64,000 nucleotides of DNA from Candidatus Omnitrophota bacterium (GTDB taxonomy: Bacteria > Omnitrophota > Omnitrophia > Omnitrophales > Aquincolibacteriaceae): positions 233,267-297,266 of the forward strand of contig DAOPYQ010000002.1 in the NCBI GenBank assembly GCA_035352955.1, given 5' to 3'. Positions 6,645 through 60,100 of this stretch are shown here, piece after piece. The notes beneath the pieces were generated by a model, which worked only from the letters and a program-made list of their open reading frames with translations, had not been told where the DNA came from and searched no databases. A program made the position numbers and the translations under genes. Every line of letters begins with the position of its first letter. Within the stretch, counting starts at the first letter, position 1.

Positions 6645-6699
6645 AGGGGTGGAATCCTAACATAAGGGTTAAGGTTTGACAATAACATCGGAAAAACAG

Positions 6700-20964: not shown

Positions 20965-21112
20965 GCCAAAAGGTTACCTTGAATATTCGGTTATGTCAAC
21001 CGAGAATTCAATGTTTGTTCCAACGTGAAAATCGGATGCGCCATGCTCATCCTTCAATGATACTCCTCTGATCGAAAGACTAACTCCTCGCTTCCGTTTA
21101 TGATCGGAATGC

Positions 21113-30578: not shown

Positions 30579-30599
30579 TGAATGCAAAAAAAAGGGAAC

Positions 30600-30632
30600 A
30601 GACAATGATGGCATGCCTGTCCCCTTTTTAAC
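30600..30632. terminator. Terminator hairpin, diverged member of the same family
   Basis: aaaaaaaagggaacagacaatgatggcatgcctgtccccttttt lies downstream of the pyrE stop. Confidence 0.45.
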
Positions 30633-30638
30633 TTAAGA

Positions 30639-36538: not shown

Positions 36539-37039
36539 TTAGTATCCCGCCCGATTCAACGCGATATTCACGAGCCTGTCCACGTGCTTAATCTTCGGAT
36601 GTTCGCGCGGCACGTGAAAATAACTGACTCGCTGAAATTTTTTCTCAAGCGCTTTGACTTCCATAAAGAACGGCCGAAGATGTTCGGCCTTGAGCTTATA
36701 GATGCCGGAAAGTTGCCGGGCCACGAGTTCGCTATCGAGGAAATAATCCGCTTCTTCGATCCCGAGTTCGGCGGCAAGTGTCAGTCCGCGGATCACGGCC
36801 GTATATTCCGCGATATTGTTGGTCGCGTCTCCGATGGTTTCGCCGTGATCGGTGAGTTTTTGGTCCTGGGCATCGCAAACGAGAACGCCGATCGCCGCGG
36901 GGCCGGGGTTGCCGCGCGCGCCGCCGTCGGAATAAATCTTTCCCTTCTTAGCGGATAACGGATGGTGGATGGTGGATGGTGTTTGGGCTTTTTCGCCCTC
37001 CGCCTTCCGCCCTCCTTCATCCCGTTTCAGAGGTACCAT
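36539..37039 (-). CDS. rnhA: Ribonuclease HI (true start probably downstream of the annotated ATG)
   Basis: RNase H core IYSDGGARGNPGPAAIG...TNNIAEYTAVIRGL...D. The ATG-defined N-terminal ~30 codons overlap a REP-like palindromic element (36953..37018). Confidence 0.7.
   Translation of the reverse strand: MVPLKRDEGGRKAEGEKAQTPSTIHHPLSAKKGKIYSDGGARGNPGPAAIGVLVCDAQDQKLTDHGETIGDATNNIAEYTAVIRGLTLAAELGIEEADYFLDSELVARQLSGIYKLKAEHLRPFFMEVKALEKKFQRVSYFHVPREHPKIKHVDRLVNIALNRAGY
36953..37018. repeat. REP-like palindrome of the same family
   Basis: gcggataacggatggtggatggtggatggtg…cgccctccgccttccgccctcc lies between cysE and rnhA. Confidence 0.55.
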
Positions 37040-37779: not shown

Positions 37780-37860
37780 GGATGAAGGATAACGGAAGAA
37801 GGATGGAGCCTAGTTTGTCGCCATCCACCATCCGCTGCCCTCCATCCGTCTTTTCCGGTT
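37780..37860. repeat. REP-like palindrome of the same family
   Basis: ggatgaaggataacggaagaaggatggag…tcgccatccaccatccgctgccctccatccg lies between cysE and ychF. Confidence 0.55.
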
Positions 37861-38960: not shown

Positions 38961-39018
38961 GATGACTCCTTGTGATTTGAGGGGAGACTATAACAGAAAA
39001 GCAGAATAGGAACAATCA

Positions 39019-39173
39019 GGATGGAGGATGACGGATGGCGGAGGGCGTAAAAGCCAAAGCTCCATCCGCCCCAACTTTTAATTTTATTTCTGAAAAGGTA
39101 GTTGGGACGGCCCCAATTTCCGCTTCGCAAAAATTGATAGGTATTGGGACCGCCCTCCGTCATCCGACATCCG
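39019..39173. mobile_element. MITE-like element with ~22-bp terminal inverted repeats GGATGACGGATGGCGGAGGGCG, intergenic copy
   Basis: The left end ggatgacggatggcggagggcg and the right end cgccctccgtcatccgacatcc are reverse complements. An inverted copy of the whole element lies at 39842..39942. Confidence 0.6.
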
Positions 39174-39178: not shown

Positions 39179-42100
39179 TTATGCCGCCCACGCGACGACC
39201 TGCTGGTTCAGATAATCCTGAAGGACCGCGCGAAGCTCCGCGTGAACGATCAGATCGCCATCCGGCGATTCCGTCACGCCCCGTTCTTTCCCTTCGGAAA
39301 GCACGTACAGAAGCGCGAGCGAGATCAGGCCCTGCTCCTCATCCAGCCTGAGCGCTTTAACGAGAGGATGCCGTTTACGCCGCGCATTCTTTCCGTAAAG
39401 ATCGACGGCGGCACGATTCGGGAGACCAAATTTCGCGAACGCCTGTTCCATCCCGAGTTCCGTGACCGCGATCTTCCCGCCCTCGATCTGCCGGAGGATC
39501 GTTTCGCGTGCCAAAAGCGGCTCTTGCTCTTGCCGCGCAACCTTCGTCATCCTGAGCGCAGGCTTCGTCATCCTGAGCGCAGCGAAGGATCCCGTCTGAG
39601 ATTCTTCCCCCGCCGATGGCGGGGTCAGAATGACGGCCTTATTAGTTGGTGCTTCCCCGTAAAGAACGATCCGGGCGTCTTTGCGGCCTTCGGCAACCGC
39701 CGTCGCAACAATAAAGAATTCTTCCCACTGTTTTGCCGTGAGCGCGGCAAGTTCCGCACGGCTCATCAGGATCGTCCCAGCGCCGTTCAATGTTTCGATC
39801 CGGCTGCGGACCGCGAGCGCGTGACGCACAGCGCTTCGCGCTGAGGATGACGGATGACGGAGGGCGGTCCCAATACCTATCAATTTTTGCGAAGCGGAAG
39901 TTGGGGCGGATGGAGCTTTGGCTTTTACGTCCTCCGTCCTCCGTTTCCCTTCCTCCTGCTTTTCGGGTGTTGCACGGAGGGCGGGTGAAGCAGAAGCTGA
40001 GGGGTCAGAAAACTGCTTCGTGCCCGCCTCTCCGCGCGGTTGAATGGTTGTATTAATTATAATTTTTTCTCGCTTGGGTTCTTCGCCAGAGGCGAATCCG
40101 TCCACTTGCTGGTGGATTCGACTCGGGACGAATCCGCCGCGCTGCGTGGCGGAGAGTCTCGACGGGGCCGATACACGCCTCGGGTTTACGGCCGTAAACC
40201 CGAGGGCTGCTTCATTGACACCCCTAAAAGGCTGTGATAGGCTTTGGGTGGTTTCGCGGGAAAGAAGCTGTAAAGAAGATAAGCTACGGGTTGTTAAACC
40301 GCTCGGTTGAGAGATCAGCCGGGCGGTTTTTTTGTTGTCCTGCCTGCCCACCAAAACTTCAGCGCGGATTTCAGAGCGGGGCCCCGAAAAAACCGACGCC
40401 CACGCGTAAAACCCTCGGACGACGGCCCGCTCATAATCCAGGGAGTCTTTTTGGAGACGGGTCAATAGCGACTTGCCGACCTCGCCTCCCGTCGACATAA
40501 ATTCACCTTTATCGTCATCCGCCCGGCGGCTTTCCTGTGCTTCGTTTTCAAGAAGCTTGAGCCATCTCCGAAGCGGTTCAGTTTCTTGACCGGAAAATGG
40601 GGTCACCGGCTCACCGTGAACGGCTGCCCGGAAACGAACTCCCGCTTGCGCGATAAAAGACAGAACTTCCTCGGCAGCTTCCGAAGCCTGCGCCTGTTCT
40701 TTCTCGGGATAAATTCCCAGAAACTTGCGCCGCTGCGACAGCGCCTCTTCAAGGGCTTGCCGCATCGTGAAATATCGTGCCGCCATCTCCGCCTGCCTTT
40801 CGCCAAGCGTTCCCTGCCACGGGTTAAGAGCCTGAAGCGCTTTCCCGACAAGGCTCTGCGGCACGGCATCCCAGGCCCCTTTCTTCCGGATCTCAAGCGC
40901 AAGATTCTCCACATCGGCCCGAATACTCATGAATTCTTTCAATAATGTCCCCTCCGAAGACACATTGCCGGTAAGTGCTTCCTGAGAATAGATCTTTGTC
41001 AGCAGCCGGTCGGAAACGGTTTCACCTGCGGGATCCACAAGGAAGGGACGCAGGGTCGGAGTCGGCTCAAAGTGCGCGAAACCATACCCCAGCTCCCAAT
41101 CAGAAAATTCTATCCCTTGGGCAGCTATATCCCATTGGGCGCTCCTGAACTTCCATGTTGCCACACCCATCCAGGTATTCTGCAAAGCAACAAGAGCTGC
41201 CAGCGCCTTGAGCGCCGCAGCTTGATGAGGGCTCACTTCTTCGAGCGTTTCCACAAACACATCTTTTAACGAGTGGACGATATCGTCGACATCGGCGTAG
41301 ACCTTGCGCAGCCTCTCGATCAGGGATTTATTATGAAGTCCTTTATCCGCAAAATCACGCCGCAACGCCGTCTGGAAGCTCTGAAAGGATTTAAGAGCCA
41401 CCGCAAGTTCTCCGTGAGCCTTTATCTTGTTCTGGGTTTTCAAAAATTCTCCGGCGCGGATCAGATGGTTCACTCCATCGCCCAATGAAATCCTTTCGGC
41501 AGAGATTGTTTCCGCCATGCCCGCAAACGCCGGCTGGTTCATTTCCGTGAGCGTGTTCCTTACGCGCGCAACGATCGCCGCGATCTCAGGAATCGCCGCC
41601 CGCATCTCGGCGCGGCCGCCCACCTTTGCGGCCGGCCGAGAAATGCTTGAATACGGATTCAAGCGCGCTTCGGAGCGTTTGGCGGATTGGGAAGAAAGCT
41701 TCGCCTGGACGGCTTTGGCCACGGCCGCGACTGTTTTCCAGTCGCTTCGCGAAAGCTGTGCGGCGCGCAGACCCACGCCCATCATCCCGAAACTCGCTAA
41801 AGCACGTGACGCCGCGACCCAATTTTCATGCTCCAAAGCCTCAAGCACGCGGCGGAAATACGGCCGCAGCTTCATCGGAACTTGGATACTCCGGAAGAGT
41901 TCCGTGATCCGGCGGTGGTTCCGAACTGCTACGGAACTTTTTCCGGAGGCTCTCCTCAGGACCAATCCATCGTCCGTTAGCCGATAGATCCTCTGACTGA
42001 GGCTCCTCGCGGGCGTCCGGCGAGATCCCGTCAATCTTGTGATCTCGACCACGTCTTGATAAAGATTGATCCGGACATTCACTCCGTATTGCTCAAACAA

Positions 42101-45100
42101 AAACCTTTCAAAATTATTCAAAGAATCCGTGAGGGCGCGCCCGTGCTCCTGATCGTAATCGATCAACATATCCGGTATTTTCGGAGCAAACTCCGCCAGA
42201 AGAAAATGAGAAGCAAAATCCATACCGAAGATCTCGTATTTCACGAATTGTTGGAGCGCAAGCTTAAGTGTAGATATGTCGACCAGCAACCGGCCCCCCG
42301 GCTTGAGGGCCTTGACCCATTTGGAAAAAAATCTTGGAGCTTCTTTTTCGTCATTAAAGGCATAACTCAGGGACTTCGTTCCTATCATCAGGTCAAGCTG
42401 TCCTTCCCCATAATCAAGCGTGCTGAAGTCCGCCAGCAACGGATAGGCCGCCACATTCCCCGGAAGGACCGCGCGATATTTAACCCCACCTGAAGATCCT
42501 TGGAACGAACTGTCTTTCTGAAAGAATTGTTCAAAGATCAGCTTGAGCGGCTGGGAAACATGATATTCGCCCCAGTTTCTATCGGTCATATAATTACGCG
42601 CTTGGGAAGGATTCGCGCTGATCCCCCTCAGGACCTCTATCTCCGGCCGCTGATTCGAGACCACTGAGAGCTCGATCGGGCGCTTACCATATCTCCCGGC
42701 AAGCACGCCGGCAACTTCCAGAAATTGGGGCGACTCTAGGGAGCCTGCTTCATCATGTAATCCAGGTCCCATTAAAGCCACTTTTAGAGGGCCGCGTTTA
42801 GCAGTATCAAGAGGGCGCAGCAAAAGATCGTATAACCCCGGAAATCGCTGTGCCTCAGTAAAGTCACCGTATCCGGACCGTCCGTAGAATTTCGCCAGCT
42901 GCGGATTGATCGTCCGCAGATAATCCGCGTAGGGGCCCGCCGCTTGAGCTGCCTTATCCGCAGGCTCCCGAATCTCGGCTCGGACTTCCTTGGTCCGGGC
43001 ACGAGTGCGTGCAGGACTAGGGGTGTCCTGCCGCATCTCAGCACGGCCGCCCACCTTTGCGGCCGGCCGAGGAGTGCTTGAATGCAGATTCAAGCGCACC
43101 TCGGCTGGGACTTCCTTGGTCCCAGCACGAGTGCGTGCGGGACTAGGGATGTCCTGCCGAATCTCGGATCGAAGGGCGGCGATCGTTCTGACGGCTGAAT
43201 CCAGTTTGTCATAGAACTCAAGGGAGTCGGCTTCGCGGGTGATCACGAGCGGCTTGCTCAAACCGGGATGGCCGAGGATCAGCTCTCCTCTGTCCGCTGT
43301 CACGGAAGCCCCGTACATCTTGTTCAAAACCTCGTTCAGGATCTCCCGGATCCCGGCGGCGGTCCTGTCGGAAGGATTGCCGTGAAGCTGGATCGGCGCT
43401 ATCCAGAGGATCATTTTCAAAAGCTCCCGGTCGTATTGACCCGGTGTGGCATGTTCTTTTTGCCGGACCAATACATCGAATTCTTTCAAGGATTCCCGGA
43501 GCGCGGGATAAAAATACCGGTTCAGCGCCTCTCTCGCATTTTGAGATCTTCCGAACCGAACTCCGCTCAAATGCATCGCGATCCGCTCGGTCCCTCTTTC
43601 CAAAAAGATCTTCGGCTTTACATCGACCTCGTGGTCCCCATAACCGGATGCGAAAAGGATCGCGTGCTCCGTTGATTTGCGGAGACACTGGGCCGCTTTT
43701 TTCGCAAAATTGACGGCATCCTCCCCGTATTCCCCGTAGCTTTGAACGTCCAGCTCGGCTCTTAAAAGTTCGGTCCGGGCTTGATCGGCTTCTTTTTCCG
43801 CCTGATCGAGCGCGCGCCGGAAAACAACCTCCTTACGGGCGGCTTCCAGAACGGCGTCCCGATGGCTTTCAAAATACCCTTTCAAGTCCAGCATCAGATC
43901 GAGGACCAGATCTCCGTACGTGGATAAAACCTGTTCTTTAAGAGCAGCCTCTTTCGCTTTATAGATCGTTCTTTGTCCGGAACCCTGAAAAACCATCATG
44001 AAATCCGCCGCCAGCGCTGCGGCGGCGATCCTTTCCCGGATCTCTCCGGAAAAATACTTTTCAAGCGCCGGCCAGGCGACCGCAAGGTCCGGGTCTGTCT
44101 GCAGAAGTTTCGCGGTTTCATCGACCATCTCTTCATCCACCCACTTCAGCAGAACCGGCGCATCCAGACCGGCCACTTCCATTTCACGTCCTCTTGCCGC
44201 GAAACTTTTGGGGAACATTTTTTTAGCCCGGGCGATCCGTCTTCGATCTCTTTTCCATTCTTCGTTCGCGTCCCGGATCTTTTCAGGAAGGGATTGAACC
44301 GCTTTTTTGAGCTGTTTGATCAGGTCTTGGGGCACGTATTCCTTCGAGGACTTCAAGCCCCCTCTCGCTACCGAAAAAGACGCCAAAATGAACTGGTACG
44401 CGACCTTGAGCATGGGAACGGTTTCTCTCAACGCGTCCGGACCCGTCACATCCAGATCGTATTTCTGCTCTTTCATGGCCTGATAAAAAATATCGAGCTC
44501 AGCTTCGTCCCACGGCATGCCGCGTAAAAAGAAATCCATGAGCAGTTCTTTATCCGTCCCCATCTCCGTCCCCGCAGGCTCTGTTTTAGCAAGGGACAGG
44601 AATGTATCGCCGCCGGATGAGCGCAAAGTCGCGCGAGCAGGCGAGTTCACGTCCGCCTCGCTGATCGCGAGAGCCAGGGCCTCCGCGATCCATCGGCGGG
44701 TCCTGTCAGTGGAGCGGGCTTCCCGCCTGTCCGCCGGCAAGGGGCTGTTACCCGAGATAGAGTCGGGCTTCATCTCGGGTCCGGCATCCTCCTTTTGGAA
44801 GGTGAAACTCAGGGAGGCGGGATCGAACCTCATGTGCTTGAGGAAAGCGAAAACAACGGCCGGGTCGTAAAAAACGCCCGCGAGATTCGCGATCTCCGTC
44901 AGGGCTTCCGACGGTTTGAAGATATGATTGTAGGGCCGCTGAAAGGTCATCGCGTCGAACGAGTCAGCGACCGCCGTGATCTTCGCGATAAGCGGGATCT
45001 GATGGCCCGCGAGCCCTTTGGGGTAGCCCTGCCCGTTGTATTTTTCATGATGCGCGACGACATTCGCCGCGACCTCACGGAGATATTCGAACTTCTCCAT

Positions 45101-48100
45101 CAGCGGTCTCAGCACGTTAAACCCCTCTGCCGCGTGGCTCATCATCACGGGCCACTCCGCGGGATCGAGCCGCCCCGGCTTCTTCAGGATCGCGTCGGGC
45201 ACCGTGAGTTTGCCGATATCGTGGAACGCGAAGCTGTCGACCAGCGTCCGGGTGACATCAAGTCCCATAACCCCGGCCGTGGCAACGCCAAGCTCCGTCA
45301 CGCGCGCCATGTGATCGAGCGTGACTTCGTCTTTTTCCGCCATCTGTTCGAGCAGTGCGAGAAGCTCGCTCCCGACCGGCCCGTATTTCAGGACCCTCCC
45401 GATCGCCTCCTCCCCCGCCCGAAGTTCGCTCCGGTCCGCGGGAGTTCCCCAGGAGGAGCGGGAAACCTTCAGGGATATCTCGAGGGAAACTGCATAACTG
45501 CCTTGTTTTAAGATTGAAGCAGAGCTCTGAAGTCCGGCAATTTCATTCGTTCTTTTAATTCGATAGACACTTTCCGGGAATTGGTCTTTCAAAACCACTG
45601 CCCACTCGTTCCGTCCTCCAAACTCCGCTGTAAAATCATCCGTATCATCAGGAGCAATAACCAACCGCCCCTTTGGCTTCAATAAACGGAAAATGCTGGC
45701 CGCCTTCCTCTTCCCAGAATCAAAAAGATACGTTTCATCCGGATAAGGCGCCAAACAATAGACCCCCGCCACGAAAGCCGCTCCCTTTTGCGCGGCAAAA
45801 GCTTCGGAGTCCTTACCGAGGATGATCCGGACATTCCTCAAACCTTCCTGCCGGATCAATAAAACCATTTTGTTGAACAACGCCGGATCGGGTTCGATAA
45901 AAATGAACCGGGCCCCGGGATTCTCACGCACAAGCGAAAGCGAAATCCAGGATTCGCCGGGACCGATATCTACGAACAGGGGCGCCGCGGCATTACCAAA
46001 AACTTCCCGCCAGTCCGCCGTCACAGAAATGATCGGAGAAAAATCGTTTTTCGCGGTTGCTTGGCGGTCGTTTGTTTTTTCATTTTCCGGCGACGCTTTT
46101 TGCGTTTGCCGCGACTCGGAGCGGGCCTCCTGCCTGTCTGCCAACGTGTCCACGGCAGAGCTATCTCTTGTTTGTTTGCGGGCCAGTTCCTCTTCAGCGG
46201 CCCGCCGGACTTCCGTCAAAAGCGCTTCGGTCGAAATGTCTTCGGGCGTGCTTAAGAGGATCGCGGGAGCAACGCGGGCCAGGAACCGGAGGATGGCGAC
46301 ACTGCCGTAAGAATAGGTCCATTTCTTCTTGAGGTGCGTGATGTCACTAAAGCCTTCCTTGACGAAAACGCTGGTCGAGGCCTGGAAGGTGCTTGGCGTA
46401 TTTCCGTCCTCGCGCGCGGTCCGCACCAAGAGATCGGAAAAAGGAAGCATTCTCTCCAGGGTCAGCTGCGGGTACGGATCAAAGACCTCCTGCATCCCGG
46501 TAGCGTCCGTATCGAGATTGTAGAATAACGCCTGCTTCCTTGGCCTCGTGACGGAGGGATTCCCGAAAAATTTCCCGATCCATCCCCAACTGGTTTGCCC
46601 GTCAATGCCCGGCACGGACGCCGTCCGCCACAGATCAAGGCTTCCCTTGACCCAGAAGTGCCCGGCCAGGAACCCCGTCGCGCGAAAAGCCTGATTAAAA
46701 TTTTTCATGGTGATCCAGAAAAGGGAATCTCCAAGCACCCCGGATATTTTTTCCCAGTCTTTTAACCGCGCCGGATCTCCGACGGGAGGAAATTCACCGG
46801 GCATTTTAAAGAATGGCTTTGCCGGATCCGGGATCGCGCCATCCGGACCCGCCGAAGGGCTTTCGTCATGGTGCTCGTCCATAAAAAGCTGGATATTGCC
46901 GGAAGTCGGCATCTCCCCCCGGGCCGCCGCTTCCATGGCATATTTAGCGGAACTTCCGTGATCCCCCGCAAAATAAAAACTGACCGTCCCGCCGCCGGGT
47001 CTTTTGAAACGGATCACCACGTCCCGCGCGGGGACCACGGGATTTTCCCCCGCCTGGACGATGTCCTGCCAGGTCCCCAGGATCAGGGCCGGAAAATCGT
47101 TGGATTGCCAAACGCCCTTTCCGTCGGCCTGCCGCACAAAATGATAATGTGCCCGGTCGAATTCATCGAGGAAGGGGGGTTGTCCTTCTACCGAAGGTGC
47201 GTGAAGTTTCTCCGCCGGATAATACATCATGCCTTCCGCCAACCGATCGATCCGCATCTCAGCACGGCGGCTTTCATTAGAAGCCGGCTGAGAAGTGCTT
47301 GAATATTGATTCAAGCGCATCTCGGCTGGGGCTTCCTTGGTCCCAGCACGAGTGCGTGCAGGACTATGGATGTCCTGCCGCACCTCGGCGCGGGGAAGGT
47401 TTTGGTCCATGACGGCGATCACGTCTGTCACTATCCGCCGGAATTGCTCGTACGTAGGCGCGGCATTGGCAATACGCTGCCCATCCACCAGCTGTTGACC
47501 ACGGGCAGAGCTGTAAAACGACGCCGCGGTCGCGTCGGACACCGCATGACCCGTGACCCGGTTTGAAACAAGAGTGAGTACATCCTGTAAAACATGGCAT
47601 AACTCATGCCCCGAAGATTTCAGGAATAATCCGGTTAACCAGATACTTCCTCCCACAACGATCGTCGCGCCCGCCGAATACAGGAACAAGCCGGCATCGA
47701 TATGAGATCCTCTGTTCGCCAAGTCGTGAAGAACCATGCTCGCAAAGAGCGCCGGATAAACATGAATCCGGTCAAAGTAGCGGATCACTTTCACAGAGCC
47801 CGCCTCATCGAAATGGGTGGCGGTCTCTCCTCCGTTATATTGGAATATAAGCTTCCCCAACGAAAACACCAGGCTCCCAAGCCCCCATAGCGTGTGGAGA
47901 TAACGTTTGTGTTTGAGATCTTTAAAAATTTCCAACGGAGTGCGATAAAAGAACCGGTAAAGTTCATTGAATATGACTGCCGTCCAACTCCCCGGGGCTC
48001 GGACCACGGGAACGCCGTACCGGGCTGCCAGGATTTTGACAAAACGCTCGTAATCGGCCGCGTCCCTGAGCTGGCCGGGAACGGAGAACATCGTTGATTC

Positions 48101-51100
48101 CATCCAGGCCGAAGCCAAAACATCGTTCAATAACCGCTTTAAGGGCGGCCGTAATCGCTCATCCGCCGCAACGGCCGCGGTGGAACTGTCATCGATTTTC
48201 CGTGCCGTCCCGGTCCGTAATTCGTTTCGTCCGAATTTTTCGAGCCGCTCCCCGGTGAATTTCTCGAGATCCGCAAAACCTTCCCCCATCCTCCGGACAG
48301 CCTCCGAAAAAACCTCCCGGTTCCACGCCCGGTCCTGACTTTCAATGAAGACCTCGTAAGGGAAATAGAACATCTGCTCCATCTTTGTCATCGGATGTTC
48401 TTCGGAATTATTTTCCACCAGACGCCCGGCATCCCGGTATTTTGCGTAGCGCGGGCCCGCAAAGTCCTCCCGGATCGCCTTGACCAATTCCTGATACTGG
48501 GCCAGCACCGCCCCGACCCGGTCAAGATCGCCGCGGATATCTTTCGAAAGGTCCCGGGCCAAAAGACCTTTCTTTAAAAGAACATACATTTCGAGTTTGA
48601 GGGCGGCCAGCGAGTTCCTGATGTTATGGTCAAACCATTCTCCCCAGGTCACCCGGTCGCCGTCATAACCCTCCCCGAAGACCGAAAAACCGTTCTCAAG
48701 TTCTGTCACGATCCCGATCAGGTCCTCTAGATACTGGACCTTCTGGCGGAGTCTATAGATGTCCGTTCCCTTTTCCTCGCCCGCCGCGGCCTTGCCTCCG
48801 AAAGAATCCGCCCTTATCGGAGCCTCCGGATCGGGCCATGCGATCTCCCGGGGAACCTGGATCACGGAAGGAATCGTTCCATAAGACGCCACCGTCTTCG
48901 CGCCGAACAAAAGATCCTCATATCCGGGAACGATCCGGTCGTCGAACGCTTTTTCCGCCGAAGTATAAAAAAGCGACGCGCGGTCAAGGCGAACCTTCTG
49001 CGGCTCATGCGCCTCGCGGTTCGTGCGGCTTACGGCATCCGCGAGAATGGCCGCTTCTTCGGGGGAAAGCGGCGCCACCACATGCATCGCCGTAACGTGA
49101 TAACGGGTCCGCGGCCTGAAATTCGAAAGACCTTTGTGCCTTTCGAGAAGTCCTTCCACCATCGCGTCCATCGCGGCAAGATCCGAGTCCCGCGCCGGGT
49201 CGAACTCAAAAACAAGAAGCCGGCCTCCCTTGAAAAAAGCAAGCTTTCCGAGGTAACCTTCGGCCGACTTCATGGTCTCAGCCGCTTCGCGAAAAACCGA
49301 CGGGTCCTTTTCCAGTTCCGGGTTCCGGTCTGCGGGTCCCGCAACCAACGTGATGTGCCGGACCTCCGAAGGAACCAGCCTTACCTTGGCCGCGAGCTTG
49401 GGATCCGCGCGGTCGAGCTTGCGAAAAAGTTTCAAAAGCATTCCGTCCATATACGCGTTCGCTTCGGGATCGTTCCCGAGCCTGTGGGCAAACACAACAT
49501 GACGCGCCGGCTCGATCGGCTCTCCCTTGACACCCTCCGCCTTCATCGCGGCAATATCGTCCTCTTCGAGCCTCGCGAACTGTTTGCGGTATTCCTGAAC
49601 TCGCTGAACGGTACCGGGCACCTTGTGGACACTAAAGTGCTGCTTCGCCGCAGGTTGATCCGCCCGCATCTCAGCACGGCGGCCCCCCTCTGCCGCCGGC
49701 TGAGAAGTCCTCGGATATCGATCCGAAGGATCCTCGGCCCTCGGGATTCCCACAACGATGCGGTACAACTGCTCATTGTGCCGGTACAGTCCCGCGACCC
49801 GGCCAAGCGATTCCAGCGACCATCCTCGCTTTCGGGCCAGGGCCGTCAAGGAAGCAATCTCGTAATCGGTATACTTGGGAGATTCATCGCCGAGCATCAA
49901 CAGGGTCCCGGGATGCGAGCGCTTCAGAACATTCCCGACTAGCTCATCGATCTCTGGCTTGGAGGACAGGTAACGCGCCTGTTCCGGATGCTGCATGATC
50001 GAGGGCAATACATTGAGCATGATGACCAGATCAAAATTCTCACCAGCGGGGATCCCCCCGAAATCGGTCTTCCTCCCGCGGTCCATCGCGTCAAGCCGGT
50101 CCTTCAGGACCGAAGCCCAGGCCGACACTTTCGGCACTTTGAACTGCCGGTCAAGAGCCTCCCGGAGCGCCGCCACCCGCTCAACGTATTTCTCGTCGTG
50201 CACATCGCTGGGCTGCAGCAGGGTCACATCCACCCCGGCAGTTTCTAAGGCAAAACTGATATCAAAGAAATCGGACGGTCCCACCTCGAGGACTTTCTGC
50301 CCTGCCTTGATCCTGCCGCTCGCGAAAAGTTCCTGCGCAAACCGGACGGCACCTTCCTGAACCCGCCGCGCTTCCTCTTGCTCGAAGGAATACCAGCGCA
50401 CCACCCAGCTCAGAACATCCAGCACACCGGTCCGGTCAAACGCTGTCAGAAGGTCCCGGACAGGAATGCTCTTTCCCTGAGCCTTCGCGGGCGCCGTTGC
50501 TTTCACGGATGTTTTCCCCGCCCGTGATTCGGCGCGGACGTCCGGCGCAAGCCGGACCTTGAAGATCTTCACCGTCTGCGTGCCGGCGGGACGGCCGAAC
50601 GCGCTGACCGAAATGACCTCCTGGCGGATCTTTCTGACCGAAAGACCCTTTTCCTGTTTGAAGAGAGGCTCCAGGGTATTTCCAATTCCCATGACGTAGT
50701 AGGCGCCGCCGGGTTTGAGACGAACGGACAATTCGGACAGGGTTTTGGAAAACGTCCTGCCTCCGGGGTCTTCCGTCCTGAGATCCGCTTCGTTTCGGTC
50801 TTCGGAAGGAGCCGGGGCGTTATCAATAATGGCATCGTAGGTATCGCGGACATTCTCAAACCCGTCGCTTTCCCAGACCCGCACACGGTCCTGAAGGTTG
50901 TGCGCGTACACATTGGCCAGGCTGTTTTGAACTTCCAGCTTACCAATGTCCACGCCGTCGAGCTCGATACCCGGTACCGTTTTCCCGAGAACCACAAGCT
51001 CCGGACCTGCCCCCGACCCCTTAACCAGGATCTTTTGACCCGGACGGATCTCCGGAAGGACCGCGGCGAGCAGGACGGCAACATAGGGATTTTCGGGAGA

Positions 51101-54100
51101 ATACACATTGGCAAAAACGAGGAACCGGTAGTCGTTTAATGTCTGCTCCCGGAATTGAATGCGGTGGGCACTCGAAACATTGATCCGCTCGCCGGTCTTC
51201 TTTCCCGGAAAAACCACGGGCGAAAGCAGGTCCCGGCGGTCCCGCCAGAAGGAGAGCCACTCTTCTCCCGGATCAAATATGGATTTTCGCCCCTCAAAAA
51301 CCGTAGGGTCCAATTCCATCAAGCTGAGGTTCCCGCGTCTTGTTTTCTCAACCGCCAGGCCAAGAGGGTCGCCCTTATACGCAAGGAGCCAGGAACGGAA
51401 AACTTCGCCGTCTGAAAACCAATCGGCAAACCGGATCACCCGGTCAAGCGATGCGGACGGCTCGATCGGAAAAACGCTATAGCCCTCGCCAAGCGAAAGA
51501 CCGGCGGGTCCCTCGGGAGATATCCCGAGCGCCTTCAGGTAAAAATAAAGCGGCGAATTTTCCGAGACTTTCAAACCCTCCGCCCGCTTCCCTTCCCTCG
51601 GCGCCGCCCGCATCTCCGCGCGAAGATCGTCCTTTTTGCTCCCGGAATCAGCGTCTGCGGCTGAGCCCCTTCCCGAGATAAGATTTTCCCTCATGTACCA
51701 AGCCCCGTAGAGCTTCATATTTTCGGAAGGCGCCGGCACGGAAAACGCAACGGGCTTTTCCAGTGACCGGAGTGCGGCGGCAATAGCCTCGCGGGTTTCC
51801 CGATTGAAGTCCCCCGTTTTCGCGCGCAGATCCGCAAGAGCAGCCCGGATCCTTTCCGAACAACTCCGGTAAACGGAAGAGTTTCCGAGCGCGCGTCCCG
51901 CCTCAACCGCGATCCTCGATGCGCTGATGAAAACCGAGATCTTCACATAAATGTTCTCGCTCTCCTCTCCGAATCCGGTCAGCCCTTGCAGAAGATCTTC
52001 CAAAGCTGAGGGAGAAAGGACGGGCGCTACGCGCTCCATCCCCGCAAGGGCTTTCTTTCTCAGATCGCTTTCGCCGATCCCCTTGAAATTGGAAATAACC
52101 ATCCACTGGGCCGTAAAAAACATGGCCCCAAAAACCGCTAACCCGGCCAAAACCATGCCGTTTTCGGCAAACCATGCGTTCATCGGAGATTTTGCGGCAA
52201 ATTCGGGACGAAGCGCGAAAAGAACTCCGACCATCATCGCCGCTTGAGCTACCGCAATGCTTTGAACGAGCCCGACGAGCGCGATCCTTTTCAGGATCTT
52301 TATCAGCCGGCGGTCTCGCCATGTCTCGGCGGTTCCTTTACTGCCATCCTTGAGCACTTTCAACCAGTAGACCGCCTCGACCGAAGCGATCCATTCCGTT
52401 CTCACCTGCTGCATCAGCTGTGAAGATCCGGCCGGTGCGGCGTCCTCAATCAACGCATCGAGGACCCTTCCGAGATTTTCTTCATAAATAATGGTGAGCC
52501 CTTTAGGAAAGAGACGGGCGAGACGCGAATCGCTCGGCAATCGGGAGAGATCAGCTCCCGCGGCCAACATCTCCCGGAGCGCAAAAAGCCGGGCGATCAC
52601 TTCAAGCTCCAGAGAAGTCGCCGGACGTTTAATGTCTTTTCGTAGGATCGCAAGCTGTTCGCGTGTCCGGGACGCCCATTCTTCATCTACATTCGTGCCC
52701 CGTTCCACGATCCGGACCGCCCCAGAACCTTGGGACAGCTTCGCGCCTGCACCCACGGGAGCGGCGTCAGAAACGGTAACAGAAGGCTCGTGAAGAGCCT
52801 TTTGCGGAACGGTTTTCTCCAAACCCTCGACCGCCAGAGAAATTTCCTTCCCCAACGCGAAGCCAACGATCCCGAGTCGGGACCGGGTCTCGAGAAGCCC
52901 TCTCCGGAGCATCCGGACTTTCTCTTCGCTCACATGGATGACCGGAAGCTCCCCGGGATCTTTGGAGACCGAAACGGCGAGCCGGGAAGCACTTAAAAAT
53001 GCCTGCATTTTCAGGGAGAGATCTTTCTGGTCCTCCGCGAACCGGATCAGACGGTCCGTCATATCCGCGCGAACTTCGGACGCCAGATCCGGCGCGATCT
53101 TCGCAAGCTCCACAAGTGCGTTTTTTCTCAAAACGGCTTCCGCGATCCCGCCGGTGCAAGCGAGGATCAGGAAATTTAAACCGGAGAAAAGCCCCACGAA
53201 TCCGGACACCGCGGTAAAAAGAACCCGGCTCTCCGCGAACCCTCCCTGCGCCGCGGAATTCGCGCCGCCGAAGTAAAAAGACCCCAAAGCCCCGGCCAAA
53301 ACCGCCGCAGCCTGAACGATCCCGGCGATCGAAAGTCTCCGCAAAAGTTTTTCGGTGCGCCGCTGTTTTTCCGTCCGGGCAAAGCCTTTTCTGCCGTCCA
53401 CCAGGACCTTGAACCAGTAGCCGGCTTTCACCGTAGCGCTCAAGGCCGCTTTTTGATCCGGCGAAAGCCCGGCATCCCCGGCCCTTTCGACTTCCCCGAT
53501 CAACGCTTCCAGGATCCTTTCCAGATTCCCGGAATAAATAAGCAGGAGCCCTTTCGGGAAAAGGCGGCCAAGCCGAGAATCAGCCGGAAGTCCGGAAAGA
53601 TCCGCGCCCTCGGCCATCATGTCGCGAAGCGCGAAAAGCCGGGAGAGAACTTCAAACTCTCGCGGGAGCGCGGAACGCCTGATGTCTTTTTGAAGCGTCA
53701 CATACTGTTCGCGTGTCCGGGCCTCCCATTCTTCATCCGCGGTCCAGACACGAGTGCGTGCAGGGCTAAGGATGTCCTGCCGCAATTCAGCCCGGACAGA
53801 TCTGGGTTCCTTTTCATATCCCCTTGCGGCCTCGCGGGCGGTCGAAAGAACGGCAATGCTGCCAAGATCGAGAGCTTCGTTCATGGGCCGGATCTTTGAC
53901 CGGTCTTCCCCAGAGAAGGTGCTGCTCACCCCTCCCACGTACGTCGCGAACTTCGGGGAAGAACCCGTTGCTCCGGTGGAAGGATACATTTTTTCCAAAG
54001 TCCTGAGCATCAGCCGCGCGGCCAGGATAAGACGATCGCGAAGTTCCTCCTTGGAGGAACCTTTTTCGAAAGAAGCCGCGAGGGTGTGTTCCCCCGAGAG

Positions 54101-57100
54101 ATCGCCCTGGGGTTCGAAATCAAAGATCATATGAACCGCCTGCTTGGGATCATGCCCTCTAAAGCCGAGGTCTTGATGCCGGTAGGTCCGTTTGAGACCG
54201 TGGTGAGGCGTTACGACGATCGTGATCTCATGCTCAAGAAAATAGAGGCTTGCGAAAACGTTCACGTCCTTCTGCCCGCTGTGTTGAAAGGCCCGCATGG
54301 CTGCGACCTCGCCGGAAAGACGCTGCGCAAAAGTTTCCAGAGACGCTTCATTCCACTCGCCGGAGCGGAGCGTCAAGGCTTTCCGGTCCCCTTGCTCATC
54401 GAGAAATTCTTCCGCGATCTTTCCCTGCGATATTTCCGTAGCGGTTTCCGTCTGCGGGGCAAGCGCCTTGGGGGCGACAGCCGGGGTCTTTTTTTCCGGA
54501 AAATATTTCTCGAGGAAAAGGGCTATCCGACGGAACAGCCCCGGAGCTTTGGCTAAAAAAACTTCTTTGGGGCCGGGGAGAGCCTGCTCCGCGTTTCTCG
54601 ATAGGATCGCGCTAATTGAACTAATATCCGCTTCGACCCTGTTCGTCCGGGAGCGCGTCATGAGCCACGGACCTTCCTGGATCTCACGGAGTATGTTGTC
54701 AACTTTCGCCTGAAGGACTACGGCGTCGGCTTCGAGCGACGCGTCAGGCTCGCAGAACGTCCCCTGCGGGGTTTCCGTCGCAAGTTCGAGCGCACGAAGA
54801 TAAAGGTTGGTCGCGCGGAAAAGCGCGGGGTCTTCCGACTTGAGGAGTTGTCTCTGCGCCAATAAATTCCGCGCCATTGATTCCGCAAAACGTTCCCGGT
54901 TCGCCCCCAGGATCACCGTATTGACGATAAGATCCGCGGTCAATGTTCCGACCGCATACTGCTGGTTCGCATTAAGCCGTCCGTCCGGATCCAGATCGTA
55001 AATGGGCCCGTGAATGCCAAGCTCCCTCAACAGCCGTTCCCCGGCCTGCCGAACGAGCGCGTGGTCGAACGAATAAGAAAGGCCGAGCTGGAGCGCGTTC
55101 CGCGGGATAAGGATTATTTCCCCCATCATCGAGACCGCGACGTCATTCGCCAAAGCAAAAGAGAGGTTTTCCAGGGGAGAAATCGCTTTTGCTTCCTGGC
55201 GTTCGTAATGGGCCCAATAATCATTCCGGAACTTCGCGAAATCTTCTCCGGTCTCGAGGATCCGGACCCGGGGCGTCACGTCCAGATGCGGGAAGATCTT
55301 TTGCGCCTCCTCCATCGTTCGCGCCACCCAGGCTTCCGAAAGAACGTCCCCCTCCGCCCCATGTTGGCGCATCTCGGCTGGGACTTCCTTGGTCCCAGCA
55401 CGAGTGAGTGCAGGACTATGGAGGTCCTGCCGCAGCTCGGCACGTACGGGAAGCAAAGAACGGGTTTCCGCGCCGGCCTGGCCGACAGGCTGGCCGTCCC
55501 CTTTCTTTTTGAGTGTGACGACTTTTTTCCGGAGCTCGAGGGGGGAGGTGTAAAGCGGAACGGTCCCGTCCAGTTTTCCGGAGGCTTCCCCGGCGGCTTT
55601 TTGAACGATCTCCGAAGGATCTTTTTGCCCCCCGGCAAGAGTTGTCAGAATATTTTTCCAGGCCTCTTCTTGCCCGGTGCCAAGACGCCCGGCGATCTCC
55701 CCGATCGCAAAAAAGGCCGCCCTCCGGATAGCGTAATGATCATGCCTTGCGGCTTTCATTAATACAGGGAGCGATTTTGTGTCGCCGGCCCGGCCCAAGG
55801 CCTCGGCGGCTTCCTTACGGGCCGGAAGGAAATCATCTTTCCGGACCGTTTCGCGGAGCGCGGCAAGTACAACCTCCCGCATTTCCGCTCCCAGATGCCC
55901 GGTGCGCAGGAACGCGCCCAACGCGATCGCCGCCGCCGGCCTCAAAGCCATATCTTCCACATCATTCTTTTTCAGTAGATCGATCAGAAACGGGATCAGC
56001 TCGACTTGCTCTTTTGTGCCGGCGCCAAGGATGGCGAGGATCTTGCCGGTATTCATGATCGGAATAACCTTGAGCCTGGCCCTTGCCTCAAGCCATCGGG
56101 TCACGAGACGATAGGCGGCATAGGCAGCCAGCGCAGCGCCGGCGACGTAGTAGAGGTCGCTCCCCGTCCATTCGCCGCGGATCAATCGGTCGCCCAGGAA
56201 CGCGACGCCCGGGACCGCATCCGCCCGCAGCTCGGCTGGGACTTCCTTGGTCCCAGCACGAGTGAGTGCAGGACTATGGATGTCCCGCCGCAGCTCGGCG
56301 CGCATCGGCTTCCGGTCAAATTTCCGGCGCAGCACGGTAACATTGTCGGGCGCGGTCTTGCCTCCCGCGTACTCGACATATTGTTCCGCTGAAGTTCCGT
56401 ACGAAACAAACCCCCGGATCCGCTCATCGCGAAACTCCCGGGACTTCCCCGCGTGGAATCCATAGATCCCGTCCGAAGCCAGAAGGACCTCGACCGCGCT
56501 TGCGTCGCTCAGGTCGATCGTCTGGATATCGACTACCGGGATCAGGATCTTCCGGAAAGCCCGGTCCCCGAAAGAACGGCCCGTGATATGGGATTTCCCG
56601 GTCACGGGATCCGTCAAATACCACCCGCCGTTTTTTTGTTCCGCAAACGTATAATCGCGTCCTTCCAGGAGCCCGGCTTTTGCGGCCACCCCCCGGTAAG
56701 CATCCCGCTGTTTCGGGTCCGAAAAATGCTGTTCCTCGACCGGAACTTCCTTTCCGTCCTTGAGAAGATATGCCGGAGAATCTCCGATCAGCATAAGGTG
56801 CAGCGTCTTCCGGTCCGACGGCACGAATACGCAGGTGAGGGTCGAGCCCGACTTGAATCCTTTCATCATGGAATAAAGGATTTTGAACGTCCTCTCAAAC
56901 GCCGCGCGGATATCGCCTCGATTCAGGAGAAGCGCCCACTTGAAGACGGGCGTCAAAAGAACGCTCAGAAATCTCGAAACGGCCTTTCCGCCGTGCCCGT
57001 CCATGACCGCCATCATCTGCCCTTCAACCTTCATCCATCCCGGGACCCATACTCTGAGTTTTCGATCCACAAAACTGTCTTCCTGGGGCAGCGCAAGTTC

Positions 57101-60100
57101 CGGGTGTCCGATCTCGCTGCCGCGGGCCTGCGCGATCTCCGTTCTTTCCGGATCCTTGAAAGAGATCCGCTCCCAGGCGCGAGAAGAAACACTGGCAAGG
57201 CTGCGAAGGACGGCCCCGAGGACCTTAAGGGCGGTGCCGCCGGCGATGCTGATCATCAACCCGAGGGACCATTCCCTGACTTCCCGGGCGTTAAGGAACA
57301 TCGCCCACTTGAATTCCTGCGGAGAAAGAACGCCTTTCCCGAAACCGCGATCCAACATGAACAGGGAACAGCCTCCCGGTTTTCGCATATCAAAGACGGC
57401 GGCGTAATCGGGGTAGAGCTTCAGTTCGTCGGCGGGGAGCGGCCTCGGCCCGACAAGAGACATTTCTCCCTTAAGGATGTTGAGGATCTGCGGGAGTTCG
57501 TCGAGAGCGGTCCGGCGAAGGAACGCGCCGATCGGGGTCGGGATCCGGTCGCCTCCTTCCGGCATGGTCCGGAACTTGTACATCCAGAAAAGTTTCTGCC
57601 GGTAACCCGGCCGTTCCTGCCTGAAAAAGACCGGCGCCCCGATCCACGGCGCAAAGAGCAGTGTCGCCGCCGCCAGGAGCGGCAGCAAGGCCACCGCCGC
57701 CGCGACATCGATCACCCGGATCCACGGCGCCCATTTCGCGTACGGCGTCTTCCGGAATTCTTTCGGCGTAATAATATTCCGGTCGCGCCCCCCGAAAGAA
57801 ACCGCTTTACCACCCCCCTCGGAGACCCGGTCTCCGAGCTGCGGCGACTGATCGCGAAGCTCGGCGCGGCCGCGAGCTTTCGATGGAGCGGACGAATTAA
57901 GATCCAGAGCGGCCAATTCTTCCAGCGAGGAAGCTTTTAGTTCCGGAAAAAGCTTCGCTTCCGTAAAAGCGAGGATCCTGCCGGAGCGCCCCCGGACCTG
58001 CTGATCGATCGCTTTTGAGATCAGCTGCGCCGCGCGGATCACTCCCTGCCGCTGCCTTTTCAAGATAGCTTTGGCGCCCGCGCGCAGAAGACCTTCCTCG
58101 CTCTCCCCGAAGAAATCTTGCATGGCTTCCGTATAACCGGACAAATTCTGCTGAGGCCAGAGATGAACGCCCGATAAAATCCCTTTCTGATCGTAAATAA
58201 GCGTGACTCTGATCCAGTCGGAAGCGTAGAGACTGCGCGACACGTCGTACTTTGTTCCCCGGATCGCCTGGAGATGGGAAGTGGCCTTTTCTTCGAATCC
58301 CAGAAGCACCTGCTGCCTCTTTTCGGAGATCGCCAAGGCGCCCAACCGTTGCCCCGGTCCGGCTTTCGCGGGGATCATTTGAGAAAGGATCCGGACAGTG
58401 ATGTCGTCGTTTAATCCGTAGGGGCCCAGTTCCGCCTCTCGCTGGCGGACCAAGCTTTCCTCCGGCTCGTCTCCCGCAAGATCCGTCCGCAGCTCGGCTG
58501 GGACTTCCTTGGTCCCAGCACGAATGCGTGCAGGACTATGGATGTCCTGCCGCCGCTCAGCGCGAGGCTGGCCTTCGGAGGATCTCTTCTGCTGCAAGTC
58601 GGCACGGGATAACCACCCCCACCGGATCAGGAGATCGACGGCTTCTTTTTGAAAATTTCCCGCCGCGGATCCTTTCGCCTTCAACTCGGATGCGATCCTC
58701 TCGATCACCTGCCATTCATCCCTGTGTTCCAGAGCGGCTCTTTCAAAGACGGCTTCGAGCATTCTTCCGCGAATTGAAAGATCTTCTTCCTGAGAAGCGG
58801 TGAACGCCAGGATCTCCTCAAGGAGCGAACGGGCCACAAGCTTTTTTTCTTCGGCTTCCGTCAGCGGGACCTTGTGCAAATACCGCTCCTGAAGCTGGCC
58901 AAAATAACCCGTCAAACCCGAGCCTGTTCCCGGAAGGCCGGAGGCCATCAAGGGGCCTCCCCTCATGCCGTCTTGCAGGAGCTTTGCGTTCATCGCGTGC
59001 GCTGCTCCGACGTTGTAGACGACATTCGCCCGGGGATAGCGGCGCAAGAGTTCGAGTTTTTGCTCGCGAATGAGTTCATCTCGCCGGAGAGTTAATTCCG
59101 CCATCAGTTGCCCGATCTCGCGATAGGTTTTGAACAATTCACCGGTTTCATTTTGATAAAAGAACTGCCCGAGGGAGCCCCCGAGCGCCCTGGCCCGGAA
59201 ATAAAGGTCCCGCCAGACCTCATAGCTCACTTGCATCGGGAATCTTACACGCACGCCGGCGCCGGCCATCCAAAAATCCCGTCGCTTGACGAAACCGTCT
59301 GCCGGTACTTTCGCCCACCGATCACGGGTCTTTTCAAGCCGCCTCGAAACCGTAAGGTCATCCTGTTCGATATATCTCACGGCCCTTTCGCGGGTGACCT
59401 TTTCATAAACCGCTCGGAGCTCCCGGTCATGTTCCGCGAGGATCGCCGGCCACGGAAGTTCACGGATCCCCGCCGGCAGGCGCGCCAGCATATGCTGCGG
59501 AGACATGATCTCTTCAGGGATCACGATCAGTTCCGGATACCCATGGCGGGCAGGATTTTTGTAGGACCTTGCGACAAGCCTCTCCAGCTCCGGACGGATC
59601 TGCTCAAAATCTGCCGTGGTCAGATGCGACGAATACAGGTCGAAGGCGTGCCCTTCGATCACCGCGTCCCGGGAACTTTGCACCCGGAAGACCCGGAAGA
59701 CGCTCAGACCCATGCCGGCCGCCACCGCGAGAGTTCCGCCCATGAAAAAATTCCGCCTTGAAAAACCCCTGCCCTTCGCCGGTAAGGAAGGTTTTTCCGG
59801 TTGCCGCAGAAGCTGAACGCCTTCCGCTGCCCGCTTCCCTTCAACCACGATTGCCTTCGCCCGTATCTCCGAGCGCTTTTCACCCATCCCAGAACCAGGT
59901 TCCCAATCTCCGTCTTCAGGGGCCTCACCTACAGCATCTTGAGCGGGCCGCTGCATCCATTTCCAAAGAACTGACGGACGGATCCCCAACCCCAACCGGA
60001 GCATGGCCCCGACAACCGCTCCGAATTCGAAACCCAGAACCCATGTGGATGCAAAAACCGTAGCGATCGAACCCGCGAGGATCATCCATATTTCCCAATC

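Follow-up and report, generated by a model that had tools for sequence, protein, structure and literature searches.

The giant modular gene that occupies much of one end of a 64-kb window from a Candidatus Omnitrophota bacterium is punctuated by short, hairpin-forming DNA repeats, all of which are read in one frame and one orientation and begin directly after one peptide motif, R-[A/S]-E-x-R, at the borders between protein modules. The window, a stretch of 64,000 nucleotides of contig DAOPYQ010000002.1 (assembly GCA_035352955.1), had been described before by a sequence-only reading, which noticed palindromic units inside the giant open reading frame (ORF). Here, we distinguish four families of such units: A, B, and C in the window, and D in a related genome. 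We favor, at an even chance, the explanation that they are hairpin repeats resembling REPINs or Rickettsia palindromic elements (RPEs), which target the junction motif and whose passenger peptides are tolerated in the linkers between modules. The DNA that could be read for this comparison comprises the 64 kb of the window genome, for which GCA_035403665.1 offers a second assembly, and 26 kb from two other metagenome-assembled genomes (MAGs), CAZPCF01 and CAZDVO01, whose contigs are referred to as L001 to L004; a further contig, L009, stems from JGI.

Unit Families and Their Tie to the Junction Motif

The giant ORF of the window holds seven copies of B (one of them truncated), four of A (one diverged), and three of C. 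All are on the minus strand, which is the coding strand, in a single frame, and each B or A unit is made up of 21 codons (63 nt) including one copy of the motif. Together, B and A units occupy eight junctions, and the positions and in-frame location reported for them by the sequence-only reading proved correct; the C family, the motif in front of every unit, and the fact that the ORF is still open at the end of the window had escaped it. The copies are real, but to call them near-identical was slightly generous, as the pairwise identity of B units ranges from 85 to 97% (mean 90%) over 78 nt, and each copy has one to five differences from a 57-nt consensus. With 26–30% identity in the adjacent 78 nt, the units are nevertheless far better conserved than the surrounding coding sequence, as had been claimed. 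A 47-nt core of B is matched five times in the window at up to three mismatches and not once in 100 shuffles. The peptide encoded by B is QDIHSPARTRAGTKEVPAE, and the C family encodes (D/E)Qxxxx(L/F)G(D/N)xVSEG. Family D was observed in L003 (2518–2649, minus strand) as a 102-nt double hairpin (−69 kcal/mol, DNA z = −7.9) that encodes GTHIPPTRWDMGATRPEISLSLVAPRTSRDSLEP; it is flanked by a perfect direct repeat of motif DNA, CGCTCCGAAATGCGC (RSEMR; 15/15 nt identical). Copies of A and C were seen in the window genome alone, those of D in L003 alone.

The motif itself is found 21 times in the frame of the giant ORF, where 1.2 occurrences are expected from composition. Each of the other five frames of the same DNA contains one or two copies, 11 turn up when the remaining 39 kb of the window are translated in six frames, and the giant ORFs of the two other MAGs contain 27. 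Practically no module border of the giant protein is without it. Each unit begins directly after it, and B and A units also close with a second copy, so that the earlier placement of the units exactly at borders between protein modules is borne out by the map of motifs and modules. Among 48 copies, variation falls on third codon positions and the x codon: glutamate is encoded by GAG in 25 and by GAA in 23, and TCN or GCN codons of all kinds are used at the second position. Because the variation sits at these positions, the motif is taken to be under constraint as a peptide. There is a codon bias as well, with CGY for the first arginine in 39/48 copies and AGR in none, and CGG for the last arginine in 30/48; as DNA, the motif reads CGY KCN GAR NNN CGG. 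Still, a role as a pure DNA recognition site was dropped, because the variable positions are exactly the wobble positions of the codons, although AGR and AGY codons are avoided. The x codon was also considered as an internal start and dismissed: about half of the copies have ATG, GTG, TTG, CTG, or ATH there, the remaining ones encode Ala, Ser, Thr, or Arg at this position, and a ribosome-binding site is not apparent. The DNA of the motif pairs into the stems of the units, in B as GCCGAG-NTG-CG with the central CGCACTCG and in A with CCTCGGC. We regard R-[A/S]-E-x-R as a candidate for a processing site or a joint.

Although B is open in five of six reading frames, the 13 copies known from the three genomes all stand in one frame and one orientation, directly after the motif. 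This argues for targeted placement and against random insertion followed by filtering. Of the earlier proposal that REP/MITE-like elements (repetitive extragenic palindromic elements and miniature inverted-repeat transposable elements) had colonized the gene only where an in-frame linker is tolerated, we therefore retain the type of element but not the random colonization.

Hairpins and Conservation at the Nucleotide Level

The hairpins named before in B, GGGAC-ttccttg-GTCCC and CAGGAC-tatggat-GTCCTG, are present, as are those of A (including GGCCG…CGGCC), and B has a third, small hairpin, GCACG-n4-CGTGC. The 3′ stem of B really measures 8 bp and reaches into the flanking A-E-x-R codons. Overall, B is laid out with a hairpin at each end (xGGAC-n7-GTCCx), with stems of 6–8 bp and 7-nt loops, around a central small palindrome. 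With a covariance model of B, the reverse strand still reaches about half the forward-strand score, which makes B a quasi-palindrome built like a head-to-head REP dimer. The same model weakly recognizes A, C, and D, and a search with it for further cryptic or decayed B copies returned just the 13 known ones. Folding of the mRNA strand, proposed earlier as a check, turned out in favor of structure: B reaches −47.5 kcal/mol as sense RNA (z = −6.9), and A is strongly structured as well (z = −4.0 and −6.3 for its two strands). The values for B are similar as antisense RNA (z = −6.7) and for its two strands as DNA (z = −6.1 and −6.7). When the 60-nt segments of 51 kb of giant-ORF sequence from the three genomes are ranked by structure, 16 of the top 21 lie within 60 nt of a junction motif, compared to ~11% of the sequence.

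The stems are kept by compensatory changes, at copy numbers so small that the covariation figures are indicative. In B, the pair 49/65 is GC in seven full copies, CG in two, and GU in one, and UA in the truncated copy, while the pair 41/72 is CG in seven copies, UG in three, and UA in one; 89.6% of the stem cells are paired, versus 31–37% with the partners slid. Among the four copies of A, four pairs have changed on both sides, and 92% of the cells are paired versus 35–45% when slid. Here, the diverged copy has TCGGAT/ATCCGA instead of TTGAAT/ATTCAA and CGGCGGC/GCCGCCG instead of CGGCCGC/GCGGCCG. GU and AC mispairs are equally common in the stems, which gives no indication of which strand folds or of whether RNA or DNA is the folded form, and the comparison was dropped as an uninformative strand test. 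Intrinsic terminators were discarded as an explanation, since no T-run follows the stems, and Rfam gave no match on the units, either for the whole window at the gathering threshold or for positions 41500–43300 at E ≤ 1. A perfect 28-nt palindrome, CCTCGGGTTTACGG/CCGTAAACCCGAGG, was additionally observed in the last module (40178–40205); it has the CCTCGG/CCGAGG core of the junction units and is not located at a junction.

All ten full copies of B use the same codons throughout. The 14 distinct variants of B comprise 11 nonsynonymous and three synonymous ones, over 43 and 14 sites, respectively; as with any dN/dS-type figure from few copies, the resulting ratio of ~1.2 is indicative rather than decisive. 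Nine of the 14 fall on codon position 2, and the amino acid changes include H>P/L, R>L, T>I, G>R, and P>R/L. Conservation at the level of nucleotides rather than the peptide, as proposed before, is thus confirmed. Synonymous variation like that of the neighboring coding sequence, which the sequence-only reading had named as the contrary observation, was not found in the copies, whose synonymous sites are nearly frozen. On the best reading of these data, the nucleic acid sequence and its stems would be maintained and the encoded peptide would be a passenger, tolerated because it is located in a linker. Pfam and NCBIfam contain no family for the units. The linker peptide of B had no match among 1.84 billion representative proteins (HMMER), a type of library in which giant proteins may be missing, and protein searches with the 68-aa linker and with the modules M12 and M4 retrieved no relatives from libraries that appear to lack giant proteins.

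Distribution and Comparison Between Genomes

A degenerate B pattern was scanned over 185,579 species genomes and matched only the two other MAGs, on four contigs. The anticipated recurrence in related genomes was thus found. All five pattern matches in the two whole MAGs lie inside giant ORFs (1,719 to >2,660 codons) that are rich in RSExR motifs, with the same frame and orientation as in the window and directly after the motif. JGI metagenomes and viral contigs yielded zero matches to the pattern, a blastn search of plasmids and phages with the 204-nt B-A-B composite found nothing, and a module-based metagenome scan revealed no relatives. As the 39 kb of the window outside the giant ORF also contain no copy of B or another unit, the expectation that copies would occur elsewhere, for example in intergenic DNA, did not hold.

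B copies from one genome are 93.3% identical and those from different genomes 93.4%, and several genomes have individual variants in common. Since identity is no higher within a genome, gene conversion, which had been suggested as the process that keeps the units uniform, is rejected as the cause of their uniformity. Apart from B (87–97%), no DNA is conserved between genomes; the next best match, in the catalytic sugar-transferase domain, reaches 65%. Homologous modules share 27–55% protein identity between genomes, and the compared modules may be paralogues. Initially, B seemed to come after one and the same homologous module in all three genomes, which a module-by-module comparison did not confirm.

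The Giant Gene and Its Modules

From its stop codon at 39179–39181, the giant modular ORF extends on the minus strand beyond position 64000, where the window ends. It has 8,273 codons inside the window, and the gene call in GCA_035403665.1 is 10,513 aa long (~31.5-kb gene). Contig DAONFQ010000006.1 of this second assembly (L008) shows 0 mismatches to the window over 21,095 nt, three unit sites included, and the genes neighboring the giant gene are present on 11–12 contigs from NCBI, JGI, ENA, and Logan, some of them >0.2 Mb in size. All Pfam domains of the ORF are in frame, namely Bac_transf and PP2C, HEAT, two methyltransferase modules (MTS; Methyltransf_4/_31), and HD_5. Most of the giant protein has no Pfam match, and the domains that were found belong to scattered, unrelated enzymes. 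The R-[A/S]-E-x-R motif divides the protein into ~18 modules of 230–820 aa, with each Pfam domain contained in a single module, and the modules look like complete proteins. In the sugar-transferase module, an N-terminal membrane helix is located just past the joint. A signal of the twin-arginine translocation (Tat) type, GFSRRNFFMGGTLAVAAGMGLSVF (Tat-like SRRNFF), was observed inside the giant protein at 59687–59761 (minus strand), 38 aa past the RSEIR junction at 59875; this module looks as if it once had, or regains, a free N-terminus, and such an internal signal suggests that modules may need free N-termini. Module 9 consists of a membrane-containing unit of ~350 aa that is duplicated in tandem, without a junction motif between the halves, and a 260-nt direct repeat of 73% identity is located at 52428–52687 and 53478–53737.

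The protein resembles the "multi-enzyme" class of giant proteins described for Omnitrophota (bioRxiv 10.64898/2026.06.07.730766), with which it shares the phylum and the tiling of unrelated enzyme domains (methyltransferase, HD, sugar transferase, HEAT) in one polypeptide. Cleavage of Omnitrophota giant proteins into smaller products has already been proposed (bioRxiv 10.64898/2026.06.07.730766; 10.1101/2023.11.21.568195), but information on cleavage points was stated to be lacking (10.1101/2023.11.21.568195). By term search, palindromes, hairpins, and linkers have zero mentions in both preprints (10.64898/2026.06.07.730766; 10.1101/2023.11.21.568195), and the word "motif" has zero occurrences in the 2026 preprint (10.64898/2026.06.07.730766).

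Presence, Absence, and Flanking Repeats

A comparison with homologous borders had been recommended by the sequence-only reading, and it revealed units that are present at some of them and missing at others. In L003, the Bac_transf module begins 4 aa after a double motif, whereas in the window a C unit and ~12 further residues intervene. This double motif, RSEARAESR (L003 ~4000–4026, minus strand), has nothing between its two copies, and it may represent an empty or vacated site. The PP2C module directly follows a B unit in L001, where the window has just a decayed RTEIA..RGSEIG. L004_1703-2366 and L002_1-606 are homologous modules, but B follows just one of them. In addition, truncated or decayed copies of B exist at 53794 and in L004.

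Flanking direct repeats were found when the proposed check for target-site duplications was made. Around B, 11–12 nt are shared in L001, L002 (including a shared GAA), and L004 and at 56302, and the left and right motifs of one unit match in 8.0 of 9 nt versus 6.2 for random motif pairs. For B this test is biased, however, because the right-hand GCCGAG belongs to the unit's own stem, and the repeats coincide with the peptide motif.

That the repeats make assembly of the locus fragile, as had been suspected, is evident from the contigs themselves: L001 ends inside a B unit at its 5′ end and L002 at its 3′ end, and L009 stops ~350 nt short of the B-A-B cluster, at about window position 42616. 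As the units fragment short-read assemblies, copy numbers in MAGs are underestimates.

Hairpin Repeats at Module Joints and Competing Explanations

According to the explanation to which we give an even chance, A, B, C, and D would form a set of short, non-autonomous, hairpin-forming DNA repeats that reside in frame in disordered linkers between modules and are confined to the modular giant genes of a narrow Omnitrophota lineage. They would be self-propagating repeats specialized for one niche, the motif-encoding DNA at module joints. Each unit would have been copied into the DNA of the junction peptide, always 3′ of the motif and in one orientation, and would have left a second motif copy on its far side. 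Directional and motif-dependent placement suggests a hairpin-dependent single-strand mechanism, and we infer that the units are, or were, mobile. A Y1-type transposase (IS200/IS605 TnpA or RAYT) might insert them next to the short target or, alternatively, they might spread by template switching between motif copies. With all copies in direct orientation and in frame, an exchange between any pair of them would delete or duplicate whole modules and leave the frame intact.

Several observations weigh against such mobile repeats. No transposase or other mobilizing gene was seen in the 64 kb of the window genome and the 26 kb of the two MAGs. The units are low in copy number and none was found outside giant ORFs, whereas REPs, MITEs, and RPEs also settle between genes and in genes of unrelated kinds. 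The tags of REPs (GTAG, CGTC) are both missing from the stem feet in the aligned copies of B, A, C, and D. The identity of B across genomes (93%, compared to 65% in the shared catalytic domain) fits purifying selection at the level of the host at least equally well, and REPIN families usually keep less than 93% identity between species. Moreover, the flanking-repeat test carries the bias introduced by the stem of B, and the modules compared between the three genomes may be paralogues.

The same conservation leads to the possible, though rather unlikely, alternative that the units serve the host as punctuation, i.e., as cis-acting RNA or DNA structures at the module borders of a 31.5-kb gene that are kept uniform by purifying selection. 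Possible roles include ribosome pausing for module folding, a block to 3′-exonucleases or mRNA processing, and binding of gyrase or nucleoid proteins as at intergenic REPs and bacterial interspersed mosaic elements (BIMEs). Besides the contrast between B and the best shared enzyme domain, this explanation would account for the equal identity within and between genomes, for compensatory changes that keep the stems, and for the position of the units, which are the most stable local structures, at borders of modules the size of whole proteins; a gene of this length presumably offers no intergenic space for ordinary REPs. Occupancy is patchy, however: 11 of ~17 borders in the window carry a unit and six are bare, and units stand at ~2 of 10 junctions in L003 and at 1 of 4 in L004. 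Homologous borders differ in occupancy, decayed copies are tolerated, and the four families are unrelated and partly genome-specific. Furthermore, the equal frequency of GU and AC mispairs favors no RNA strand, and no Rfam match was obtained. A host role as RNA or DNA punctuation would be compatible with the hairpin-repeat explanation if the elements were domesticated.

If it were instead the peptide that matters, QDIHSPARTRAGTKEVPAE with its flanking R-A-E-x-R would be a linker for a protease, a docking partner, or a modifying enzyme, and the identity of the DNA would reflect recent duplication. The flanking motif indeed behaves as a peptide-level signal in its third-position and x-codon variation, it stands at 21 borders of the window and at 27 of the MAG loci, and one junction is followed by the Tat-like signal. 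Within the unit, the opposite pattern is found, with 11 of 14 variants changing an amino acid and nearly frozen synonymous sites; the position is taken by three or four peptides that are unrelated to one another (A, B, C, D), a unit is missing from many junctions, and the 1.84 billion representatives, Pfam, and NCBIfam, which may miss giant proteins, contain no match. A peptide-level function of the unit itself is thus unlikely, and this explanation as a whole we consider highly improbable.

Module order differs between the genomes, homologous modules keep the motif as their border, and the repeats are all direct and in frame, so that exchanges between them preserve the frame. Together with the tandemly duplicated module (52428–52687 and 53478–53737) and the double motif without anything between its copies in L003, this might suggest that the units and the motif DNA are designed joints for gain, loss, and shuffling of modules, with shuffling as the selected function. 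We regard this as improbable. No recombinase was seen, assemblies with deleted or duplicated modules were not found and the one comparable assembly is identical over 21 kb, and the motif DNA varies at wobble positions, unlike the core site of a recombination system. Because the modules look complete and the motif is conserved at the peptide level, the joints could also be processing sites of a polyprotein. In this unlikely scenario, the giant gene would be an in-frame chain of once independent genes, a "fused operon," with the motif as processing site and with mobile or recombinogenic units that home to the joints and drive frame-preserving gain, loss, and reshuffling of modules. If true, it would constitute an in-frame counterpart of cassette arrays and provide Omnitrophota giant proteins with their first candidate cleavage points that are defined by sequence.

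Finally, short-read contigs do break at the units, and mis-assembled repeats could in principle mimic both the units and the giant ORF. An artefact of assembly or annotation is nevertheless almost certainly not the explanation in view of the identical second assembly across three unit sites, the neighboring genes recovered on many contigs, the occurrence of the same units in giant ORFs of two other MAGs, and the in-frame Pfam domains along the whole ORF.

Features of the Window

The units and bare junctions of the giant ORF are listed in Table 1.

Table 1. Hairpin units and bare junction motifs in the giant ORF. Coordinates of B and A span 78 nt, i.e., the unit plus the flanking motif codons on both sides.
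Feature	Position in window	Strand	Score or remark
C unit, RAELR-EQPTHFGDPVSEG	62975..63031	-	9-bp hairpin TTCGGAGAC-CCG-GTCTCCGAG
C unit	61553..61609	-	hairpin weakened
Bare junction motif RSEIR, no hairpin unit	59861..59875	-	Tat-like signal 38 aa on
B unit, RAERR-QDIHSPARIRAGTKEVPAELR	58487..58564	-	102.6 bits (B covariance model)
C unit preceding Bac_transf module	57812..57868	-	missing at homologous L003 border
Probable decayed junction RTEIA..RGSEIG	57107..57145	-	between Bac_transf and PP2C halves of one module
B unit after Bac_transf+PP2C module	56225..56302	-	
B unit after HEAT module	55367..55444	-	
Truncated/decayed B unit	53717..53794	-	64.9 bits; B-like for ~45 nt past RAELR, then diverges
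Bare junction motif RAEMR	51608..51622	-	
Bare junction motif RAESR	50522..50536	-	
Diverged A unit	49664..49741	-	both hairpins kept by compensatory changes
B unit, first half of B-A composite	47315..47392	-	0 mismatches to 47-nt B core
A unit of B-A composite	47252..47329	-	PAEMR codons common with preceding B
Bare junction motif RSESR	46109..46123	-	
Bare junction motif RSELR	45419..45433	-	
B unit, first of B-A-B composite	43094..43171	-	
A unit, middle of B-A-B composite	43031..43108	-	
B unit, last of B-A-B composite	42968..43045	-	compensatory G>C / C>G stem change
A unit, solitary	41600..41677	-	
Bare junction motif RSEIR	40364..40378	-	

Outside the giant ORF, the window contains repeats of other kinds. 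An extragenic palindrome, AAAAGGGGACAGGCA...TGCCTGTCCCCTTTT, is present in three copies (5264–5318, 12286–12330, 30586–30634) with flanking A and T runs and looks like a bidirectional terminator; these copies form a separate intergenic family unrelated to A, B, and C. A G-rich intergenic repeat, GGATGG(C/T)GGA, occurs at 196–219, 6699–6724, 36946–37027, 37780–37803, and 39014–39070, and a 57-nt inverted pair of it (36971–37027 and 39014–39070) brackets two genes just downstream of the giant gene. The gene of an AAA_14/DUF4143 ATPase (19801–20964) is flanked by a direct repeat of ~195 nt with 94% identity (19595–19792 and 21101–21298). Its first copy contains a full nhaA-I riboswitch (19601–19656, 53.9 bits), while the second diverges at its 3′ side and gave no Rfam detection. 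An autotransporter of 1,907 aa that has PATR repeats is encoded (13785–19508, minus strand) just upstream of the spacer with the riboswitch, and its internal repeats of 26–52 nt reflect the repeat domains.

Significance and Relation to Known Systems

Several consequences follow for the giant genes of this lineage. Across genomes, the units have diverged less than the enzymes on either side of them, and they explain the fragmentation of these loci in short-read assemblies. Motif and units together provide a sequence-based way to cut giant proteins into modules for structure prediction, the motif supplies concrete candidate processing points, information that is missing in the literature, and direct in-frame repeats suggest how giant genes may grow, shrink, and reshuffle. 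Coding palindromes, so far mainly a Rickettsia curiosity accompanied by scattered intragenic REPs, are now found in a different phylum.

Classical MITEs have terminal inverted repeats of 15–30 bp and a short target-site duplication. The units described here have internal hairpins instead of long terminal inverted repeats, and their flanking repeats of 9–15 nt coincide with a peptide motif. Elements of the IS200/IS605 group and the cargo-less palindrome-associated transposable elements (PATEs) possess subterminal hairpins without terminal inverted repeats and insert orientation-specifically at a short target without duplicating it. B resembles them in its hairpins at both ends and its strict orientation beside a short, fixed target, but the units are flanked by repeated motif DNA, a pair of similar terminal hairpins is lacking in A, C, and D, and no TnpA was found in the DNA that was read. 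In integrons, attC sites are imperfect palindromes that stand in one orientation in cassette arrays, in a system that further comprises an integrase, attI, and R/L core boxes. The likeness lies in one-orientation imperfect palindromes that punctuate an array of gene-sized modules whose order varies between genomes. Here, however, the units are located inside one reading frame and the shared flank is a peptide-constrained 15-mer, and no integrase was found among the genes neighboring the giant gene.

Closer parallels are offered by the REP/REPIN elements, which are associated with RAYT transposases (PMC3733652, PMC2817692, PMC3337134) and whose stems have a tetranucleotide tag, GTAG or CGTC, at their foot (PMC3733652). 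REPs are imperfect palindromes of 20–40 nt that often form inverted pairs, are mostly extragenic, and reach tens to thousands of copies per genome, and the RAYT gene is flanked by them. Intragenic REPs are known in several bacteria, including Opitutus terrae of the Planctomycetes-Verrucomicrobia-Chlamydiae (PVC) group, where dimers encode 20–30 aa, and REPs in the linkers of modular proteins were proposed to be neutral (PMC3733652). Like REPs, the units are short, GC-rich stem-loops, and B consists of two inverted hairpins as in a head-to-head REP dimer (REPIN). They differ by the missing GTAG/CGTC tag, their low copy number and non-extragenic location, the strict dependence on the motif, and the unusually high conservation between genomes; among the called genes around the locus, no RAYT or other transposase was present.

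The second parallel are the RPEs, palindromic repeats that reside within functional ORFs without disturbing the frame (Ogata et al., 2000, 2002, summarized in PMC10969869 and PMC3733652). They are described as ~100–150 bp long and scattered over many unrelated genes, intergenic DNA, and RNA genes. The units share with RPEs the in-frame palindromic repeat, the existence of several families per genome, the passenger peptide, and the insertion where the protein tolerates it; the likeness is judged by descriptions of RPEs rather than by their sequences. By the same descriptions, the units differ in their length (57–117 nt), their confinement to giant modular genes, where RPEs are scattered, their position directly 3′ of one motif in one orientation, and the phylum. 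As they have neither the tag and the extragenic, high-copy distribution of REPs nor the scatter of RPEs, we file the units as a variant of these elements and not as members of either group. The tie to one junction motif, one frame, and one orientation, exclusively between the modules of giant genes, is a feature not described before.

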